The notes beneath the pieces were generated by a model. The model had not been told where the DNA came from, did no database searches, and saw nothing but the letters and a program-made list of their open reading frames with translations. Below are positions 1 to 9,205 of a DNA stretch of 64,000 nt, one piece after another. Source of the stretch: Parachlamydiales bacterium (GTDB lineage Bacteria > Chlamydiota > Chlamydiia > Chlamydiales > JAJFMK01); assembly GCA_963765145.1 (NCBI GenBank), contig CAVXVG010000021.1:96001-160000 (forward strand). Reading direction: 5' to 3'. A program made the translations under genes and the position numbers. Every line of letters starts with the position of its first letter. Position 1 is the stretch's first letter.

Positions 1-799
1 TTCTTCCACTCCAATAGTCAAGAAGCGCTAAATAATTTATGAATCCAGCTCCTAACACTAAAACAAGAGACTGAACAACGCCTGTAAGGAATCGCTTTTT
101 AAAAAAGGTAGTAAATTTGATAATTTGGCTATCAAGCTGCTCAGAGAGCTTGTTAGATACAACATCTAGAATGTGGTAATTATTCACAAGTTGCCGATTA
201 CTCAGAAAATCATGCAGCTTTGATCGAGTTGACAAAGTTTCATTAATAGCACTCTTATGCAATGGACGAACCGAATCCGTCAATTTCAACACGGTAAAAA
301 AATAGATTCCAACAACAGAGAGGAATGTAAAAGAATACTTCAATCCAAAGCCGATTAGAATCAGAGCTGAAGATATAATCACCTCTAGAAGTAATGGCAG
401 GACCATATAGTAAATTCTCTCCAGAATGACGATAAAACTACCTTCTCCGTTATTAATTATTTGAGTCAATTTTCCCAAATCTTCGTTTCTTTTTGATCCT
501 AGATTGTTAGAGAAGATGTTTTCAAAACTTTTTAGCGACAGAACCTTCAACAACCGTTGTGAAAGCGGGCCAAAAATAAACAATTGCATCTCTCGAGTAA
601 CTCGAGAAAAAAGAAATGCGAACACAAAAAATGTGAAATAAAAAAATACATCAGCACCTTCTTTAACGTGATTAATAAGATTATTAATAGAAATTGGGAT
701 TTGGGACGAAAAAAATGCATACAGCGCGACATTCACCAAGGACAAAGTAATAAACAATTTGTCTTTTGTCAGCAGTCCCGTATTTACCCTCGCAAACAC
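1..799 (-). CDS. ABC exporter, transmembrane domain (ABCB/ATM1-like), 3' part outside the window
   Basis: Not in the ORF track. Manual translation from GTG 799 is open to base 1: VFARVNTGLLTKDKLFITLSLVNVALYAFFSS...FLFSRVTREMQLFIFGPLSQRLLK...DLGKLTQIINNG...VLPLLLEVIISSALILIGFGLKYSFTFLSVVGIYFF...LHDFLSNRQLV. Several TM helices in the ABC_membrane pattern. Start codon uncertain. Confidence 0.8.
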   Translation of the reverse strand, partial: MFARVNTGLLTKDKLFITLSLVNVALYAFFSSQIPISINNLINHVKEGADVFFYFTFFVFAFLFSRVTREMQLFIFGPLSQRLLKVLSLKSFENIFSNNLGSKRNEDLGKLTQIINNGEGSFIVILERIYYMVLPLLLEVIISSALILIGFGLKYSFTFLSVVGIYFFTVLKLTDSVRPLHKSAINETLSTRSKLHDFLSNRQLVNNYHILDVVSNKLSEQLDSQIIKFTTFFKKRFLTGVVQSLVLVLGAGFINYLALLDYWSGR

Positions 800-862
800 T
801 CTTCTAATCGTTAGCTTTTCTCTTAATTTGATAAAAACCTCTCTAGAATCTCAATAAATTAG

Positions 863-1459
863 CTAACTGTGAAACCAATAGCGACGAATAGTTCTCTCTC
901 CAGAAAAAGAACCGCGACTGTGAAGAAATCTCCAATTATTTATCACTAAGACCTTGCCAAGAGGTATAGCACCAAGAGAAATTGAATTAGACTGGGCAGA
1001 AAGAAATAGCTCTTGATGAACACGCTCTAAATCTGACTCTTCCAAAGCAGGAGACATAAAATCACGCCTATACCGAAATAGAAATGAGCCGTCAGGCGCT
1101 CTATCAAGGATTCTAGCTAAAATTCTTTGATCACCTGAGCCAAAATAGCACGGCATTTCTAAATTTTTTGAGTTAAGATGGCTCGAATTGAATACTCTTA
1201 TCTCCCCACCTTCGCAAGGCTTTAAAAGCTGAATAGCAATATACTTTGGAGGGATTAACTGGAATGTGGCATCGGTATGGTAATAAAATTCATCATTTGA
1301 CGATTGAAGATCTCCCTCACCAATGAGGGAACTAATCGTCACAGATCGAGTTAGATTTAATCTCGTTCCACTTAAATGAGAAATCTCATTGAGCAGATTT
1401 AAATCAGTACCAACATCTAGATAGGCATATCCTAAATTAGTTAATTCATTTTGAGTCAT
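863..1459 (-). CDS. TauD/TfdA-family 2-oxoglutarate/Fe(II) dioxygenase
   Basis: HxD (YYHTDATF) and distal His/Arg (NNWRFLHSRGSF...RTIRR). Likely start ATG 1459, overlapping the upstream gene. Confidence 0.8.
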   Translation of the reverse strand: MTQNELTNLGYAYLDVGTDLNLLNEISHLSGTRLNLTRSVTISSLIGEGDLQSSNDEFYYHTDATFQLIPPKYIAIQLLKPCEGGEIRVFNSSHLNSKNLEMPCYFGSGDQRILARILDRAPDGSFLFRYRRDFMSPALEESDLERVHQELFLSAQSNSISLGAIPLGKVLVINNWRFLHSRGSFSGERTIRRYWFHS

Positions 1460-2522
1460 CTTTAGGAACTCCAATCTTGATAAAATATAACGGGTCTAGT
1501 GGGATTCCAACTAAATTCAGTAGTTTTTTTGCACTTGTTTCATGAATTGCTGGCGTGCCCCACCCACCTAACCCAAAGTTACTTGCTGCTTGAAAAAACT
1601 CCTGACCTAACTCTCCCGCTTGAATAAGGAGGTTGATATAGGCCCTTGAATGCCTATAAATCCAATAATACCGATCCCACTGTGAGCATAGAAAAAGACA
1701 GAAGCCACCGCCTTTAATCCATCGCTGATACTGAATACAAGAATAAATATCTCTTTCGTTTTTATAAGAATTAACTCTAGTCAATCCATGCCTGACAGGA
1801 TCATAATGATAGATCCCATTATCTATACCCTCAACACCTTGAATTGCAATAAAAACAACTGCCCAAGAATAAAATGAATTAAACATTTGTAACGGGTCGG
1901 GTTGACTTCTCGATACATGCAAAGCTCTAATCTGCTCAGTTGCATCATGAATTACCGATGAAAAGCATGAAATGGACACTATTTCTTTTTTAAAAGACCT
2001 TACGCTTTTCCTTTTGAAAATAGAATCAATCCTGTTCTCTTTAGGTGAGTGAGGTTCTTCAAGCTGAATAAAATCACCAATAAAAGTGATGTACTCGGGA
2101 TATTTTCCCTCTTGCTGTTGCTCACGAACAATCTGCCTTCTGAGTTCGAATAGGCTCGGAATGGATACCTCATCTGGATCTTCCTCTACATACTTCAAGT
2201 TGAGTTGAGAAAAAGCTAAGTAAGCGGCTCTTGTCCAATTATGCTTCTCCCACAACTCAGCAGACACATATTCATCAGAACAAGTATCACAAATAATTCC
2301 GCTTGAAAGGGCACAAACTATTTCCCTTTCAGAAAAACCATGTTGCAATAACTCTCCCCTTAATTTAGGTGTCAAGCAGAAATGCGAGATGTCTACTAGT
2401 CGCGAAGAGACTTTTTTAAAAGCTGAATTAGTGTGCAGATTTCGCGCTACAATCTTACTGTTGTTAAATTCAAAAACAAAAAAAGGAGACGTTACAAACT
2501 TTAAATCTTCGCTTAGCCTCAT
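1446..2522 (-). CDS. SagB/ThcOx-like nitroreductase-fold protein (copy B)
   Basis: IFKRKSVRSF (RxSxR FMN-phosphate motif), GIYHYDP, WIYRHSRAYINLLIQAGELGQ. About 90-aa N-terminal extension, possibly an RRE. Confidence 0.8.
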   Translation of the reverse strand: MRLSEDLKFVTSPFFVFEFNNSKIVARNLHTNSAFKKVSSRLVDISHFCLTPKLRGELLQHGFSEREIVCALSSGIICDTCSDEYVSAELWEKHNWTRAAYLAFSQLNLKYVEEDPDEVSIPSLFELRRQIVREQQQEGKYPEYITFIGDFIQLEEPHSPKENRIDSIFKRKSVRSFKKEIVSISCFSSVIHDATEQIRALHVSRSQPDPLQMFNSFYSWAVVFIAIQGVEGIDNGIYHYDPVRHGLTRVNSYKNERDIYSCIQYQRWIKGGGFCLFLCSQWDRYYWIYRHSRAYINLLIQAGELGQEFFQAASNFGLGGWGTPAIHETSAKKLLNLVGIPLDPLYFIKIGVPKDDSK

Positions 2523-3577
2523 ACAAGAGTACCAACATAAAGTGGCGTTTGAGTTGCCTGGTTGATTTTTAAAAGATTAGAAATCGTAGAGTCCTCAAAT
2601 TTTTGATAGGTATAGTGCTTGTAACCAAGTAAATTTGAAATAGTCCGATAGGCCATTATTGCATGACCAACATCAAGCAGAATAGCTCTCCAGGACCTAG
2701 ACTCTCTATATCTCCACATCGCTCTTTCATAGAGCGTCGTGTATATCAAGAGCGCTTTAGGCGCTGATTTATACTTTCTAAAAAGATCAAAAGTGCCTTT
2801 TTCGAACTGTGCGTAAAAGTCACCTGGATTGATCAGATCGAGTGAATTGCTTTTAACGTTATAATGATAACAACCTTTTTGAAGGACCTCTTCGCTACCA
2901 AACCACACCAAAAACACTTCTAATGGGTGCCTAGCACCACCAGATGGAATTGCCTTTTTTAAAAAATGTCCCTGCACGCCAAAATTGAGTTTGGATCTTT
3001 CCCCATAAGCAACATCTAAAAGAACTGAGAGACCCTCTATGCCCAATTTCTGCTTTTCGGAAAGCTTGTTGATGTATTCATCGACAGACTCATCATTTTT
3101 AAATTTAACTAATAGCTTCGATGAAAGCGCATGAAAATTTTGGTAAATTGAAGGAGGACAACCTTCCTTTCGGTATTGCACCATCCTAGCTTCATCTTCC
3201 ACTAAACCTTTCCGTACGTTCATCTTTAAGAACGGGTAATCTTTAGTTGCTTCATGATAAACGGATGCTTCACTCCAGCCATACTTTTTCCATTCCTCAT
3301 AGCCTGTCTCTATTCCGGCTTTACGGATAATTCCTGCATTCAGACATAAGTCAAAAACTCCGGTAAACTTCAAAGTATCACCAAAGATAGTAATCCAAGC
3401 ATCTTTAGCAAGATGAAGGTCAAACGTTCTGCTTAATGCTAAAAGCCAGGTGAGGATTTTTGGGTCCTTAAGAATAATACAAGGACTAGCTGAATCTATT
3501 TCAGCTACAAGCTTCCTCACCCCGGAGACAATCTTTGTAAATACAAGTAGGTTGCTATGTATCTCGTAATTGGTCAA
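2519..3577 (-). CDS. SagB/ThcOx-like peptide dehydrogenase (copy A)
   Basis: KAIPSGGARHPLEVF, GCYHYNV, AMWRYRESRSWRAILLDVGH. N-terminal extension. 4-bp ATGA overlap with copy B. Confidence 0.85.
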   Translation of the reverse strand: MTNYEIHSNLLVFTKIVSGVRKLVAEIDSASPCIILKDPKILTWLLALSRTFDLHLAKDAWITIFGDTLKFTGVFDLCLNAGIIRKAGIETGYEEWKKYGWSEASVYHEATKDYPFLKMNVRKGLVEDEARMVQYRKEGCPPSIYQNFHALSSKLLVKFKNDESVDEYINKLSEKQKLGIEGLSVLLDVAYGERSKLNFGVQGHFLKKAIPSGGARHPLEVFLVWFGSEEVLQKGCYHYNVKSNSLDLINPGDFYAQFEKGTFDLFRKYKSAPKALLIYTTLYERAMWRYRESRSWRAILLDVGHAIMAYRTISNLLGYKHYTYQKFEDSTISNLLKINQATQTPLYVGTLV

Positions 3578-3612
3578 CTGATTCCCAAAAATTTTATTTT
3601 TCCGTTATTAAC

Positions 3613-3636
3613 GATCAACCCCAATGGCGGTGGATC
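3613..3636 (-). promoter_or_regulatory. Stem-loop between precursor gene and modifying enzymes
   Basis: On the minus strand GATCCACCGCC-ATT-GGGGTTGATC forms an imperfect hairpin with no downstream U-tract. Confidence 0.45.
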
Positions 3637-3643
3637 AAAAAAA

Positions 3644-3802
3644 TCACTCTTCTATTTGCTCATCAGCATATTCCTTAATGGAAATATCACAACCAGTAAT
3701 GATACTCCCATTTTGAATGGTTGCAGCAATTACTGAATCTGCATCAGCAATTTCGATCAGATCTTGGTAGTCTTCAATAAGATTAACTAAACATGCACTC
3801 AT
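3644..3802 (-). CDS. Candidate RiPP precursor peptide, 52 aa
   Basis: Below the ORF-track cutoff. AAGGAG RBS (3810-3815) 7 nt before ATG. Sequence MSACLVNLIEDYQDLIEIADADSVIAATIQNGSIITGCDISIKEYADEQIEE*. First gene of the operon. Confidence 0.8.
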   Translation of the reverse strand: MSACLVNLIEDYQDLIEIADADSVIAATIQNGSIITGCDISIKEYADEQIEE

Positions 3803-4082
3803 GACATAACTCCTTGTTCACGTCGATTGAGGAGACTAAGGCATGCCTTCTTTTTGCGCAACTTTGAAGTCTAGGAAACAATAAGGTAATCAAAAGCGGT
3901 CTTTGAGAAAATGCTTGCGAAATTCCCAATAAAAGCTAGCTACCAGACTTATAAAGCCTATGAGTCGTCTGAGCAGCTCTGTCACATTAAAAAACTTCAA
4001 ATAGCTTAGAAAGTCCTTTTCATTGAGACAATTTCTACCGAGCTTTGCTTCTGCCGATTATAAAAATTTAAAGTAGACTGAT

Positions 4083-4172
4083 CGCGCCCTTCGTAAAACC
4101 CACAGCTGCCCCCTCATTCCACTTACTATCGCCTCTGTCAAATGGCGCCTCGGCCAACCCGGTTTCATTTAA
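4083..4172 (+). repeat. Orphan copy of the 3' 90 bp of the PRTase-domain gene
   Basis: Encodes RALRKTHSCPLIPLTIASVKWRLGQPGFI*. Matches 4734-4823 with 12 differences, 11 of them silent. Confidence 0.9.
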
Positions 4173-4239: not shown

Positions 4240-4260
4240 TTATCTAAAATTGGTTGTTGG
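4240..4260 (-). repeat. Orphan copy of the 3' end of the amide hydrolase gene
   Basis: ttatctaaaattggttgttgg matches 5926-5946 at 20/21 positions. Minus-strand translation ...PPSIPTTNFR* versus ...PPTTPITNFR*. Confidence 0.7.
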
Positions 4261-4823
4261 GATGCTTGGAGGAAGAGCTCCGGCTCCGTCCAAGTCCCAT
4301 TGCAGGAGCTAAAACACACAACATCTCTCCAGGACTTAGCCTTTTTGATGGCAAAATGCGGATGCCGCTCTTTCTTCGCTTTATGAAAGAGCGTGCCTTA
4401 ACAGAAGAGGCCCATCCCGACATCCTCGCGCTTCTCATCCAGCATACCTCTACATTCTTGCCCATTGCTGCCATCGTTTCCCTCCCCTCTAAAACATGGA
4501 AAGCCCAAAACAGCTACGCCAAAGCCCTTTCGACACATTTTAATGTTCCCATCCTTCCCCTACTTACCTGGGAAACCCCTCCTGAAAAGCGGCAAGGAGA
4601 ACTTCTCAACAACGACCAGCGCCACCACAATGTCCATCAAAAAATGAAAGCAAGCTTCACAAGCATGCCTCCCGGCGCTCTGATCCTTCTCGACGACTAC
4701 ATTGACTCAGGCGCCACCCTGAAGGAGGCTGCACGCGCCCTCCGCAAAACCCACAGCTGCCCTCTTATCCCTCTCACCATCGCCGCTGTCAAATGGCGCC
4801 TCGGTCAACCCGGTTTTATTTAG
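4254..4823 (+). pseudogene. ComF/PRTase-like domain, probably a 5'-truncated C-terminal fragment of a RecQ-PRTase helicase gene
   Basis: LILLDDYIDSGATL PRPP-binding motif and Q..LLNNDQRHHNV. The apparent start lies inside the remnant of another gene's tail. Confidence 0.6.
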
Positions 4824-5860: not shown

Positions 5861-5933
5861 CCACAGCAGCCCTCTCATTCTACTCACGATTGTCGTAATC
5901 AAATGGCGCCTCGGCCAACCCGGCTTTATCTAA
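5861..5933 (+). repeat. Third copy of the PRTase-gene 3' tail
   Basis: HSSPLILLTIVVIKWRLGQPGFI*. Overlaps the stop codon of the convergent hydrolase gene. Confidence 0.85.
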
Positions 5934-7095
5934 AATTGGTTATTGGAGTGGTTGGGGGAGTAGCATTTGGAACAGTTGGTGGAATAACGCCCATCCCTGC
6001 TGCTTCTGGAGGCTTCACCTCAACGGGAATCATTGAAGTGGTGGCGTTGACGAACTTGGTGGTGGTCGGAATGGTCATTTTAACTTGTGGAGCATTTGGT
6101 GCCATGTTTAGCTTGCTCATGTCGATCTGATAGAGGTTGGGATCTTCATACGAACGAACGTAGAAGTTTTTATTGGTCAAATCTTTGATGACAACCCATT
6201 GGGTGTAGTCGCTTGTGTTGTTCTTTTCTTGAACATCGCCAAGAGGGATATCGACCGTATTCAATAAGTGAAGTGCAAGGATGGTCACATCTGTGCTGTT
6301 TTTCGCCCGTTTAGCAAATTGCTTATAAGCGGCAATCCGGACAAATCGAGATGGAGGAGTCCAATCGCCCGGTATCCCTAAAAAACCGCTCCCTTGTCCT
6401 GTACCATCTATTACAGTATTGCCTATTTTGACAGGACCGGCATTCATCGCATTTAAGTTAATATAGTTAGATAAGTTAACCACATGCCATTCGAAATAGG
6501 GGGCGTTGGTTAAAATCCGGACAGGGTTATCTGAAATAACCTTTTCCCCTTTGATAAACTCGATCACAATCGACTTGCCGGTTGCATCATGCAAACTGAT
6601 ATGGCAGGGAGGAATGGTATTACCAAATTCAGCAATGGGTTCAGCAAAAAGGTACACTTTTTCTAAGCCTGCACGGGCTTCATCCACAGTCGCAAAATTG
6701 CCTAACAACCAGTTGCCAATATTGGTCAATAAAAGGGCTTCAGACTCTTTTCCAGCGGGGACTTTTTGGTATTCAGCCCCGGGAAACCAAAGTGCACCAA
6801 AAGATAGCCCTTTTTCATTCATCCCATCGACAGGCAAATCGAGGCCAAAAGCATTGACAGCAAGATACCCATATTTAGAGGTCCAACTCAGCCCTTGGAT
6901 AGGGTCGGAATGGGGGTTCGTTAAAGTGATCGAATACTTTTCTCCCTGAGGATGGAGGACCACTTCAGAACGGAGGTTAAGGGCAAATTCCATTGACCGC
7001 CCCACCACCTCGCTTTTATCTTCTGCCGTCAGCTGAAAATCGGTACAGCAATAAAGAGGGGCCTGCAAAAAGAGAAGGGCCAATAAGTATTTCAT
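5926..7095 (-). CDS. Choloylglycine hydrolase / linear amide C-N hydrolase family (Ntn hydrolase), secreted
   Basis: Signal peptide MKYLLALLFLQAPLYC, then nucleophile CTDF. GRSMEF, DGMNEKGL, PGDWTPPSRFVR. Pro/Thr-rich tail. Confidence 0.9.
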   Translation of the reverse strand: MKYLLALLFLQAPLYCCTDFQLTAEDKSEVVGRSMEFALNLRSEVVLHPQGEKYSITLTNPHSDPIQGLSWTSKYGYLAVNAFGLDLPVDGMNEKGLSFGALWFPGAEYQKVPAGKESEALLLTNIGNWLLGNFATVDEARAGLEKVYLFAEPIAEFGNTIPPCHISLHDATGKSIVIEFIKGEKVISDNPVRILTNAPYFEWHVVNLSNYINLNAMNAGPVKIGNTVIDGTGQGSGFLGIPGDWTPPSRFVRIAAYKQFAKRAKNSTDVTILALHLLNTVDIPLGDVQEKNNTSDYTQWVVIKDLTNKNFYVRSYEDPNLYQIDMSKLNMAPNAPQVKMTIPTTTKFVNATTSMIPVEVKPPEAAGMGVIPPTVPNATPPTTPITNFR

Positions 7096-7124
7096 TTCAA
7101 AACTCCAATAAAGATTTACCAATA

Positions 7125-7730
7125 TCAGCTTTTGAAATATTTCTCAATGGCTCGGGCTGTCGAGGCGTAGCTTGTGTGGTACAGGGTTTGTATCCCCATC
7201 TGTTTAGCTATTTCGATATACAAAAAGGTATTTTCGACATACAAAACCTCTTCAGGAGGAGTTTGAGAAAGGTCGAGTGCAAGTTTGAAGATATCTCGAT
7301 CTGGTTTTAACAAATGGACGTAGCACGATGAGACGAACGCATCGACAAAATCGGTTAAATGGAAGGTTTTGATCCGATAATCGTTGAGCTCTTTCCCCTC
7401 GTTGCTCACCACAAAGATTTTCAAAGCATGTTTTTTCTTCAAATTTCGAAATAACTCGAGCATCTCTGGAAAAAGCTTCGACTGATCGAACATAAACCGT
7501 TTAAAGTCGTCCATTGTGAAAGATCTTTTTTCGGTAAAAACAACTCTGGTCAAATAATCATCTAAAGAAAGTTTGCCCCGCTCGAATGGATCAAAAGTCA
7601 GATGGTGTAAGTCTTCCACCTTTTCACTGTTCAGATGAAAAGTTTCGCAGGCTAATTTTCTGGAATTGCGATCCCAACCATTTGTTAAAAAGACCCCTCC
7701 AATATCTAAGAACAAGGTTTTGATCGGCAT
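7125..7730 (-). CDS. HAD-family phosphatase
   Basis: FLDIGGV motif I, VVSN, KPD motif. Confidence 0.85.
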   Translation of the reverse strand: MPIKTLFLDIGGVFLTNGWDRNSRKLACETFHLNSEKVEDLHHLTFDPFERGKLSLDDYLTRVVFTEKRSFTMDDFKRFMFDQSKLFPEMLELFRNLKKKHALKIFVVSNEGKELNDYRIKTFHLTDFVDAFVSSCYVHLLKPDRDIFKLALDLSQTPPEEVLYVENTFLYIEIAKQMGIQTLYHTSYASTARAIEKYFKS

Positions 7731-9205
7731 TTCAATTCCTTAATGGGGGGCCAATAATGATTTTCTTGAGCAAGAAGACGGTCGGCAGCAATAGGGCCCC
7801 ATGTCCCGGCTTCATAGTTTGGAAAATCTTCTGAAGGCGCTTTAGACCACATATCGATGATGGGCATCAAAACCTTCCAAGCGGCAGCCACTTGGTCGGC
7901 TCGCATAAATTCGGTCGGGTCGTTTTTCATCACATCCCATAGCAGAGTCTCATAAGCATCGGGCGATTTAGTTTTAGAGTCCCCTTCATAGTTGAACTCC
8001 AGATCGACCGTTCTTAGCCTCATTTCAGGGCCTGGACATTTGGCCATCACTGTCATCATGATCCCTTCAGTGGGTTGGATTGCCAAATAGAGCTCTGAAG
8101 GTTGTTTATCAATCGTAGCCTCTATTGGGAAAGCCTGATGAGGGACCCGTTTAAAGTGGATCACAGCCTGAGAGGACTGCTGAGGCAATCTTTTCCCTGT
8201 TCTTACGTAAAAAGGGACATCATGCCATCGCCAGTTATCGATCAGAAGTTTAAGGGCAACAAAAGTCTCTGTTTTTGAAGTGGGGCTAACCCCCTCTTCC
8301 TCCCGATATCCTAAAACTTTTTTCCCATCGACCTTTCCGGCACCATACTGACCGCGGACGGCTACATTTTGAACATCTTCCGGTAAAATCGGGCGGATTG
8401 CATGCAGAACATCGAGCTTCTTATTTCTGATTTCATTTGGATCAAATGAAGTCATCGGCTCCATGGCAACCAGACACAGCAATTGCATCATGTGGTTTTG
8501 AACCATGTCACGCAATGTTCCTGCATGTTCAAAATACCCTCCTCGATGCTCAACGCCCAAGTCTTCTGCCATTGTGATGGTGACATAGTCTATGTAACGT
8601 CGATTCCAAATAGGTTCAAATTGTGGATTTGCAAATCGAAAAGCCAAGATGTTTTGAACGGTTTCTTTTCCTAAATAATGGTCGATGCGGAAGATTTGCG
8701 ATTCGTCCATGCAGGCAAGCAATGTCTCGTTTAAATCAGAAAAAGACTTTAAGTCATATCCTAAAGGTTTTTCAATGATAATTCTGGAATGTTCTTTATC
8801 ATCTAAAAGTGCTGCTTTCTTTAGATGTGGGGGAATCACGCCAAATAATGAAGGGGGAACTGCTAAGTAAAACAGGAGATCATATTCGTCCTGGTATGGC
8901 TTACAAAACTGTTTTAATTCTCGATAGGTTTCTTGCTTTGTAAAATCACCCCTTATCACATGGACATGTTTTGCAAAACTCTCTAAAGATTTTTTATCTG
9001 CTTTGCCATGTCGTGCAAACTGCCTAATACCATCAAAAAAGTGGCTGTGCACCTCAGCATTTGTCATTGTGATACGGTCTAGCAGCACAATTTGGAATTC
9101 TTCAGGTAGCCGTTGGTCCATCCACAGATCAAACAGAGCAGGGACCAACTTTCTCCAAGAAAGATCTCCTCCACCCCCAAAAATGACTAAAACAATAGGT
9201 CTCAT
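7706..9205 (-). CDS. zwf: Glucose-6-phosphate 1-dehydrogenase
   Basis: GGGGDLSWRKLVP, RIDHYLGKETVQN, RDMVQNH. ATGA overlap with gnd. Confidence 0.97.
   Translation of the reverse strand: MRPIVLVIFGGGGDLSWRKLVPALFDLWMDQRLPEEFQIVLLDRITMTNAEVHSHFFDGIRQFARHGKADKKSLESFAKHVHVIRGDFTKQETYRELKQFCKPYQDEYDLLFYLAVPPSLFGVIPPHLKKAALLDDKEHSRIIIEKPLGYDLKSFSDLNETLLACMDESQIFRIDHYLGKETVQNILAFRFANPQFEPIWNRRYIDYVTITMAEDLGVEHRGGYFEHAGTLRDMVQNHMMQLLCLVAMEPMTSFDPNEIRNKKLDVLHAIRPILPEDVQNVAVRGQYGAGKVDGKKVLGYREEEGVSPTSKTETFVALKLLIDNWRWHDVPFYVRTGKRLPQQSSQAVIHFKRVPHQAFPIEATIDKQPSELYLAIQPTEGIMMTVMAKCPGPEMRLRTVDLEFNYEGDSKTKSPDAYETLLWDVMKNDPTEFMRADQVAAAWKVLMPIIDMWSKAPSEDFPNYEAGTWGPIAADRLLAQENHYWPPIKELKCRSKPCS

Follow-up and report, generated by a model that had tools for sequence, protein, structure and literature searches.

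Introduction

What might a pair of SagB-like flavoproteins do to a ribosomal peptide when no YcaO cyclodehydratase accompanies them? The question is raised by a block of genes at the left end of a 64,000-nucleotide stretch of DNA (the window; contig CAVXVG010000021.1, assembly GCA_963765145.1, Parachlamydiales bacterium), which a preliminary description had presented as a novel RiPP operon. Here we characterize this locus and its relatives, and conclude from sequence comparison that it is probably a RiPP cluster of the tiarin family, with isoleucyl-tRNA synthetase (IleRS) as the predicted target of its product. The claim of novelty finds no support, since a precursor beside a SagB-like pair, with YcaO merely accessory, is the arrangement of the tiarins, a trifolitoxin-like family described in the available text of a December 2025 preprint (bioRxiv 10.64898/2025.12.02.691738). 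The family being known, what is new here is the putative splitting of one FMN site between two proteins, the tracking of an oxygenase gene with Asn, the occurrence of Pro after the conserved Gln, and the probable chlamydial host.

Gene content and layout of the cluster

The organism is represented by a genome of 84.8% completeness (G000), within which we extended the window locus leftwards (L001). All five ORFs originally proposed are real, co-oriented on the minus strand and tightly packed: a precursor peptide of 52 aa (3644..3802; Shine-Dalgarno AAGGAG upstream); flavoprotein A, 352 aa (2519..3577), with a predicted N-terminal RRE and a SagB-type oxidase domain; flavoprotein B, 358 aa (1446..2522), with a predicted RRE and a nitroreductase-fold domain; a TauD-like 2OG-Fe(II) oxygenase (863..1459; 198 aa from the likely ATG at 1459, 203 aa from a TTG at 1474; PF02668 above cut-off); and an ABC exporter, complete at 551 aa, which crosses the left window edge (5' half at 1..799; L001 15144-16799) and has an ABC_membrane Pfam match and no detected peptidase domain. 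The A and B genes overlap by 4 nt, and those of B and the oxygenase also overlap.

The five-gene set was incomplete in one respect: directly after the exporter, left of the window and on the same strand, lies a gene for a GNAT acetyltransferase of 162 aa (L001 14607-15095). We count it in the cluster's unit because the block shared with locus L002 (81% nucleotide identity) stops at the GNAT stop codon, and because L057 has the order A-B-TauD-ABC-GNAT; it may serve as the self-immunity gene. This gene had been overlooked, as had the invariant Gln and the tRNA-synthetase link described below. The expectation that no YcaO would be found held, a PF02624 search of G000 (84.8% complete) being empty and the gene beyond the exporter being the GNAT. 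Pfam scans of neighbouring genes covered 117 representatives out of 473 clusters.

A precursor family defined by one Gln

The precursor has an acidic/aliphatic leader (L15-A19, V24, A27), a core of I29-Q30-N31-G32 and an acidic tail, and the only positions without variation among 32 aligned precursors are A27, Q30 and the start Met. As a RiPP assignment would have it, homologous enzyme pairs are accompanied by a conserved small ORF: a precursor with the Gln motif lies upstream in 53 of 61 close loci, and B follows A in 50 of 50 close relatives. The residue before Gln in these 53 precursors is Ile in 23, Leu in 8, Ala in 6, Pro in 5, Met and Ser in 4 each, and Asn in 3, and that after it may be Asn, Ser, Gly or even Pro; tolerance of Pro speaks against a ring closure of the GFP type that depends on Gly. 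The closest locus carries a Parachlamydiales label, and the host is, as first proposed, probably chlamydial.

Complementary FMN motifs in flavoproteins A and B

Flavoprotein A passes the TIGR03605 (SagB) cut-off of 78.4 bits with a score of 85, and B, at 51.7 bits, falls under it. The PSGG loop and an R289-Y290 dyad are present in A, which lacks the RxSxR FMN-phosphate motif; B has R171-x-S-x-R175 and TPA, and lacks PSGG and W[RK]Y. This split extends to their relatives, PSGG and W[RK]Y occurring in 57/57 A-type proteins and RxSxR in 0/57, as against RxSxR in 41/42 and W[RK]Y in 0/42 B-type proteins. A and B thus appear to hold complementary halves of one FMN site, and this division of motifs, together with fused A-B ORFs in a sister clade, suggests one composite site per A-B heterodimer. 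PMC8795117 describes an FMN site formed by two subunits, as well as the pseudodimeric nature of the Ox domain in indigoidine synthetase.

Predicted models place three strands followed by helices, consistent with an RRE, at both N-termini, with a full-length match to ThcOx, which is also the top Foldseek match (TMq 0.66 for A, 0.51 for B). By sequence, both match Ava_2154 (PDB 3eo7) best, its N-terminal half aligning with A and its C-terminal half with B. A predicted structure of A, B and precursor together (agreement between runs no lower than 0%, partner pLDDT no lower than 45) weakly supports their association, scoring 0.59 against 0.15 for the best control, where the benchmark mark was met by 116/157 solved and 2/215 mismatched pairs and, at scores of 0.60 or below, by 18/157 and both mismatches. 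Viral contigs scanned with A yielded no relative, and a search of the ESM Atlas returned generic SagB/ThcOx clusters only.

Relationship to tiarins and other systems

The comparison with tiarins was made through locus L213, which encodes an RQGC precursor, A-like and B-like proteins, extra dehydrogenases, a divergent YcaO-like protein and an ArgRS, and fits the tiarin description in the available preprint text. Flavoprotein A is 28% identical to the first flavoprotein of L213 over 285 aa (E 3e-34), and B 32% identical to the second over 186 aa (E 1e-25). In trees, the window proteins join their L213 counterparts in starred clades (98/90, 96/96), apart from six azole-pathway SagBs; the large A tree was built by a quick method, with 16 loci bearing short A matches left out. 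On this basis the window cluster has an adjacent TfxB/TfxC-type dehydrogenase pair, L213 (28-32% identity, same gene order) standing in for TfxB (WP_183844979.1) and TfxC (WP_183844980.1) of R. anhuiense T24. Shared with the family are further an RRE on both enzymes (in predicted models), a precursor of 23-65 aa directly upstream with a strong Shine-Dalgarno sequence, acidic/aliphatic leader and conserved Gln, a synthetase that, where encoded, matches the residue before that Gln, and, by presence only, exporter and GNAT genes.

Within this likeness to trifolitoxin the window cluster is leaner, without a YcaO, third dehydrogenase or kinase; its core is I-Q-N-G instead of R-Q-G-C; and it has a TauD-like oxygenase and an ABC exporter where trifolitoxin has a MATE exporter. 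Trifolitoxin requires Gly and a thiazoline (PMC8816728), which the window core does not offer in register. The string 'chlamyd' is absent from the preprint's main text, and by the preprint's own account the Gln-derived fluorophore still awaits both a settled structure and a biosynthetic route (bioRxiv 10.64898/2025.12.02.691738). Literature searches for 'tiarin' and 'trifolitoxin-like' gave nothing relevant beyond this preprint among the matches listed, and of the titles listed for chlamydiae and RiPPs none concerned a cluster of this type.

Attempts to retrieve the tfx cluster itself yielded other things. Plasmid searches did not return it, the candidates NZ_CP016289 and NZ_CP140917 proving to be a YcaO-type cluster and an NRPS neighbour, respectively. 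Among 401 genomes of the family of G061, 13 matched and the ten regions examined held no RQGC cluster; a back-translated RQGCVA-stop pattern matched twice in 401 genomes, neither time beside a flavoprotein.

McbC, ThcOx and BmdC, of the LAP/TOMM, cyanobactin and bacillamide pathways, share the fold, the RRE-oxidase architecture and the [KR]-Y dyad of A, but are homodimers acting on azolines, whereas the window cluster distributes its FMN motifs over two genes and has no cyclodehydratase. The indigoidine synthetase Ox pseudodimer and Ava_2154 likewise have two nitroreductase-fold halves per unit, but IndC Ox, unlike the window pair, is embedded in an NRPS and acts on a tethered amino acid with no ribosomal precursor. 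The substrate of IndC Ox is Gln. In the TIGR04509/04510/04511 cassette, too, a SagB-related dehydrogenase adjoins a small peptide with no YcaO involved, but there is one dehydrogenase, not two, with cyclase and sensor genes that the window cluster lacks; the window proteins score 64.7 and 76.2 against the TIGR04511 cut-off of 240, with no adjacent cyclase.

An oxygenase that accompanies Asn

In the TauD-like protein, H66-x-D68, H185, R194 and R198 are invariant among 11 aligned homologues. Its gene tracks Asn after Gln, a relation new here, occurring in 17 of 18 Q-N loci (the exception being L025) and in none of 19 others, although gene and residue have common ancestry on the tree.

Synthetase genes and the predicted target

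We found 23 tRNA-synthetase ORFs in 22 loci. A precursor could be identified in 21 of these loci, and each time the synthetase specificity equals the residue before Gln (11 Leu, 8 Val, 1 Ile, 1 Arg). The matches cannot be counted as independent, since L048 and L114 lie on one contig and five Val loci are close Streptomycetaceae; they amount to about five separate pairings. The rule, for which the experimental test concerns Arg only, is thereby reproduced in genomes and metagenomes gathered independently of the tiarin preprint. In locus L078, which has the A-B-TauD order of the window cluster and a precursor with ALIQNG, an IleRS gene is also present; this sole Ile-IleRS pairing seen involves a 209-aa IleRS fragment at a contig end. 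From its Ile-Gln-Asn-Gly core, the product of the window cluster is predicted to be an IleRS inhibitor.

A rather unlikely alternative, although the strongest of those considered, is that the Gln chemistry is kept and the product is a signal, a host-directed compound or an agent with another target. It draws on the lack of a synthetase gene in the window cluster, and on those loci whose Gln is preceded by Ala, Ser, Asn, Met or Pro, where queries covering part of the synthetase types found no matching synthetase. Yet the trifolitoxin cluster likewise has no synthetase and relies on GNAT and exporter, according to the available preprint text (bioRxiv 10.64898/2025.12.02.691738), and within the window's own A clade the rule holds for both L078 (Ile, IleRS) and L076 (Leu, LeuRS).

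A genomic island with intact genes

The cluster occupies an island flanked by repeats of the recQ 3' end, recQ itself ending 2.4 kb left of the window. A short copy (4070..4172, plus strand; 87% over 103 nt to the recQ end) forms the right boundary, and a long copy of 546 bp (4277..4822, plus strand; 96%) matches the recQ tail. The 'ComF-like' ORF at 4254-4823 is this duplicated tail. The AT-richness noted at the outset is borne out, operon GC being 36.7% against 43.7% for the genome, with values as low as this in 0.4% of 2535 stretches of the same length. Contigs of two DNA runs, one of which may be the assembly source, span the cluster with no indel listed within its genes; no RNA run was among the listed runs holding it, small-share runs being left out. 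A promoter and terminator scan gave 13 and 2 sites, fewer than the 17.6 and 4.9 in shuffles, and is therefore uninformative.

That the cluster is merely recent cargo, silent or decaying, seems to us quite improbable. Such a fate would suit a low-GC island between recQ repeats, the matching of A in only 6 of 61 genomes searched (G000 included), and the splitting of gene A in L002 by an ISAs1 transposase; against it, all six ORFs are intact in G000, catalytic motifs are retained, and of the 12 synonymous and 8 non-synonymous codon changes that separate the precursor from that of L002, no non-synonymous one falls in codons 22-36.

Two remaining routes concern the chemistry. YcaO-free alpha,beta-dehydrogenation of other residues, unrelated to tiarins, has precedents in cyclodipeptide oxidases and in PflD (dehydro-Phe), a nitroreductase that desaturates a RiPP residue without YcaO (PMC12636437, available text), and AlbAB is among the weaker fold matches of A and B; we regard it as very unlikely here, Gln being the only invariant core residue and both the residue-synthetase match and tree position favouring tiarins. 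Least credible is a conventional azole pathway with its YcaO encoded elsewhere, for despite the McbC/ThcOx-type dyad of A, Ser, Thr and Cys after Gln in the precursor and a genome 84.8% complete, these residues are not conserved among the 32 aligned precursors, which lack the conserved Cys/Ser/Thr-rich core of LAP/TOMM peptides, no YcaO occurs in G000 or in any ORF of L001-L120 by queries that recover YcaO in five control loci, and the divergent YcaO-like protein of L213, itself missed by Pfam, has no homologue in either set.

Discussion

A tiarin-type pathway may be outlined as follows. As their motifs and gene fusions suggest, A and B would assemble into a heterodimer and jointly make up a single FMN site, B supplying the RxSxR phosphate clamp and A the PSGG loop and Arg-Tyr dyad, while the RREs grip the leader. 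The pair would dehydrogenate Gln30 directly, with no azoline intermediate, to give a conjugated heterocycle, by analogy with trifolitoxin, whose Gln site shows a net loss of six hydrogens, a shift of -6.047 Da. Of the direct peptide chemistries earlier envisaged for the pair, dehydrogenation is thus the most likely, and decarboxylation and cross-linking found no support. The TauD-like enzyme, judging by co-variation, would hydroxylate Asn31 or the Gln-Asn unit; host proteases would trim the peptide and the ABC exporter secrete it. In the target cell, aminopeptidases may expose the N-terminal Ile, and Ile-Gln* would fill the IleRS active site. The GNAT would acetylate the free amine as self-protection, and the host's single, type-2-like IleRS, of which no duplicate was found in G000, may add resistance.

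A wider reading, which as a whole we hold only tentatively and think likelier to fail in some part than to stand, sees in the cluster the simplest representative of a tiarin subfamily that has Ile-Gln-Asn-Gly cores and is widespread. In it the heterodimer would need only the Gln side chain, and no following Gly, to make a ring that mimics an adenylate, the TauD-like enzyme would tailor Asn, and an intracellular chlamydial symbiont, shielded by type-2 IleRS and GNAT, would use the product to kill co-resident bacteria that depend on type-1 IleRS. If true, it would give an environmental chlamydia an antibiotic role and overturn the GFP-like structure proposed for trifolitoxin. The cluster itself leads to three predictions: that each A-B heterodimer binds one FMN, that Gln is modified whether or not Gly comes next, and that the oxygenase goes with Asn. 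Having only three enzymes, it is also a convenient setting for studying the action of the flavoprotein pair on its own. Finally, the likely chlamydial symbiont would thereby have a probable antibiotic against IleRS, which bears on how such symbionts might defend their niche.

A tiarin-family cluster without YcaO

The gene cluster at positions 1-3815 was correctly read in the preliminary description as a RiPP operon, and its five minus-strand ORFs were re-found at the positions given there; the label "novel", however, does not hold, as the cluster is a further member of the tiarins, a trifolitoxin-like RiPP family described in a 2025 preprint (bioRxiv 10.64898/2025.12.02.691738; "the preprint"), and not a new kind of system. 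In the preprint's definition, a tiarin cluster encodes a precursor in which a Gln is conserved and an adjacent pair of RRE-bearing dehydrogenases, TfxB/TfxC; YcaO, ThiF, methyltransferases and oxygenases are listed as accessory functions, and immunity is ascribed to GNATs. Locus L213 (genome G1043) encodes an RQGC precursor, A-like and B-like enzymes in the order of the window, two further dehydrogenases, a YcaO-like protein and ArgRS, a content that agrees, compared by description, with the validated cluster of the preprint. With L213 proteins as reference, rather than the TfxB/TfxC sequences themselves, flavoprotein A (2519-3577, minus strand) matched the first enzyme (28% over 285 aa, E 3e-34) and flavoprotein B (1446-2522, minus strand) the second (32% over 186 aa, E 1e-25). 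An oxidase-domain tree of 33 rows placed A and B in starred clades with their L213 counterparts, apart from SagBs of azole pathways, the L213 A branch being long and its exact position unsure. AlphaFold models predict an RRE-like N-terminus on both proteins, and ThcOx is the top structural match of both models.

The absence of YcaO noted earlier extended to the left flank and the host genome G000 (84.8% complete), in which no PF02624 match was found. The window spans positions 96001-160000 of contig C21 in this genome. Three YcaO queries that pick up YcaO in five control loci matched no ORF of fetched loci L001-L120, nor of G000. The L213 YcaO-like protein is divergent, being missed by Pfam and matching TIGR03604 only weakly; as a query, it too retrieved no homologue from G000 or L001-L120.

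Operon boundaries and chromosomal setting

In profile searches A scored above the cut-off of the SagB model TIGR03605 and B under it, while the third enzyme matched TauD and the last gene ABC_membrane (Pfam). Sequence left of the window completes the exporter at 551 aa; beyond it lie, in this order, genes for a GNAT (162 aa) and an orphan protein (246 aa), and then recQ. The operon has a G+C content of 36.7%, against 43.7% for the genome. A second locus titled Parachlamydiales bacterium (L002) shares 81% nucleotide identity with a block starting just upstream of the precursor and stopping at the GNAT stop codon; identity being confined to this block, the comparison delimits the unit as precursor-A-B-TauD-ABC-GNAT, present in two different genomic settings. 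In L002, this closest relative, flavoprotein A is split by an ISAs1 transposase gene (6902-7894). The orphan (13699-14439 of L001, the window locus plus flanks), between GNAT and recQ and outside the shared block, had no Pfam or NCBIfam match. The 3' end of recQ is repeated in direct orientation on both sides of the operon: four copies, namely the end of recQ itself (L001 13530-13631) and window positions 4070-4172, 4277-4822 and 5861-5937, divide the tiarin-type cluster, a short spacer, and two ORFs including an ankyrin protein. Such copies between cargo blocks suggest that integration at the recQ end happened repeatedly.

Distribution and variation of the family

Protein searches retrieved 112 homologues of A and 57 of B, and the A alignment used as query yielded 55 genome and 64 metagenome loci. 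The precursor-A-B part of the synteny proposed as a check recurs: among loci with A of at least 200 bits, B follows A in 50/50 that extend far enough downstream. Of the 61 extending far enough upstream, 53 had a precursor in the count; L032, which is among the other eight, shows one on separate inspection. Precursors share a leader approximating LVExAPxxxVxxAL and an invariant Gln, and often comprise two tandem cassettes. In a Thermoleophilia-rich clade (L005, L011, L014, L016-L018, L020, L028, L062-L070, L077, L082) the core is X-Q-S-A-H, X being A, L, S, Q, N, M or I and differing between the two cassettes of L017; TauD is replaced by hydrolase-like and glycosyltransferase-like genes, and no synthetase gene lies nearby. 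Obscuribacterales loci (L022-L024, L026, L088) carry L-P-Q-P-G-G, with Pro on both sides of Gln. In a more distant clade (L037-L056, L104-L119) A and B form a single ORF, with neighbours including an HprK-like 320-aa protein, JmjC or other oxygenase-like genes, and LeuRS or ValRS. Its apparent precursor, a protein of 120-160 aa made of repeated units and ending LLQS or LVQN/LVQH, exceeds the 23-65 aa that are the only sizes in the main text of the preprint; the precursor proper would be its C-terminal motif.

Other variants include a Patescibacteria B (L025 6482-8416) fused to a 300-aa C-terminal domain without Pfam match; precursors with long, hydrophobic, signal-peptide-like N-termini (L010 7498-7746; L060 895-1137); and a Natrinema plasmid locus in which the two flavoproteins are encoded on opposite strands and the candidate precursor (L122 10090-10191) has His before Gln. 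Two more distant members from the order of the window organism (L145, G016; L146, G006) show A-B-ThiF-ABC with an LLQHDQ precursor, and fused A-B; this order seems to have acquired the family at least twice.

A proposed composite site and the predicted chemistry at Gln

In BmdC, one subunit holds the FMN phosphate with an RRS motif and the other provides a backbone loop (PMC8795117), and in McbC a Lys-Tyr pair initiates oxidation (PMC6395948). Here these elements are divided: A domains carry PSGG and W[RK]Y (57/57) and never RxSxR (0/57), whereas B domains carry RxSxR (41/42) and never W[RK]Y (0/42). This split, together with the fused forms, suggests that A and B pair as a heterodimer containing a single working site. 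A three-chain model of A, B and precursor (run agreement at least 0%, partner pLDDT at least 45) scored 0.59 against 0.15 for the best control, one of three runs giving 0.12; since passes at this level are wrong oftener than right unless likely beforehand, it lends the assembly slight support.

By the masses in the preprint, trifolitoxin lies 24.058 Da below the unmodified peptide, leaving -6.047 Da (6 H) at the Gln site once the thiazoline water is subtracted. Lethbridge et al. proposed oxidation at Gln C-alpha/C-beta, then GFP-like closure by the Gly nitrogen (PMC8816728), a structure that the preprint contests, reporting the Gln NH2 signal absent. Among 53 precursors, Gln is followed by Asn in 25, by Ser in 21, by Pro in 5 and by Gly in 2. 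As Pro has no backbone NH, the ring would be formed from the Gln side chain, provided that the five Gln-Pro loci make the same ring.

The TauD-like protein retains its iron and 2OG residues by alignment, and its gene occurs in 17/18 Gln-Asn loci (all but L025) versus 0/19 without Gln-Asn, counts that include near-duplicates and one uncertain core (L084). Because the gene tracks Gln-Asn, Asn hydroxylation is our best guess for its activity, weakened by shared ancestry; TauD-less lineages occupy at least two nested positions on a quick-method A tree.

Synthetase pairing and the predicted target

According to the preprint, the residue before Gln foretells the tRNA synthetase hit, a rule proven there solely for trifolitoxin and ArgRS. 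Sixteen synthetase queries from G000 recovered 23 ORFs in 22 loci, class I without exception. Typing and pairing with precursors left 21 loci with both (L114 being the same contig as L048; L054, with a synthetase and no identified precursor, falls outside), and synthetase type equals the residue before Gln in 21/21 (11 Leu, 8 Val, 1 Ile, 1 Arg), amounting to about five independent pairings. Where Ala, Ser, Asn, Met or Pro precedes Gln, these queries gave no matching synthetase. The Ile case (L078) has A-B-TauD as in the window; its precursor reads ALIQNG, and its IleRS, which is partial, has MupB as best-scoring match. The window core, Ile29-Gln30-Asn31-Gly32, predicts IleRS as the target. Three points speak against this prediction: the window cluster lacks a synthetase gene, G000 has a single IleRS, and the Ala, Ser, Asn, Met and Pro loci gave no match. 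That IleRS lies in two frames (C18 166405-169540) and LeuRS in many fragments (C29 40926-43607), which suggests indel errors in the assembly.

The G000 IleRS carries DUF5915, found in 4/5 genomes with Ile-Gln clusters, which we take, from its spread in control genomes, to mark type-2 IleRS. Two IleRS types are described in passages of 10.64898/2026.02.03.703510 that do not name DUF5915. Separately, type-2 IleRS is reported to resist mupirocin. The type-2-like IleRS of G000 may resist the cluster's own compound. Residing in a probable chlamydial symbiont, the cluster offers a minimal YcaO-free system for the unsolved chemistry of tiarins, with testable predictions.
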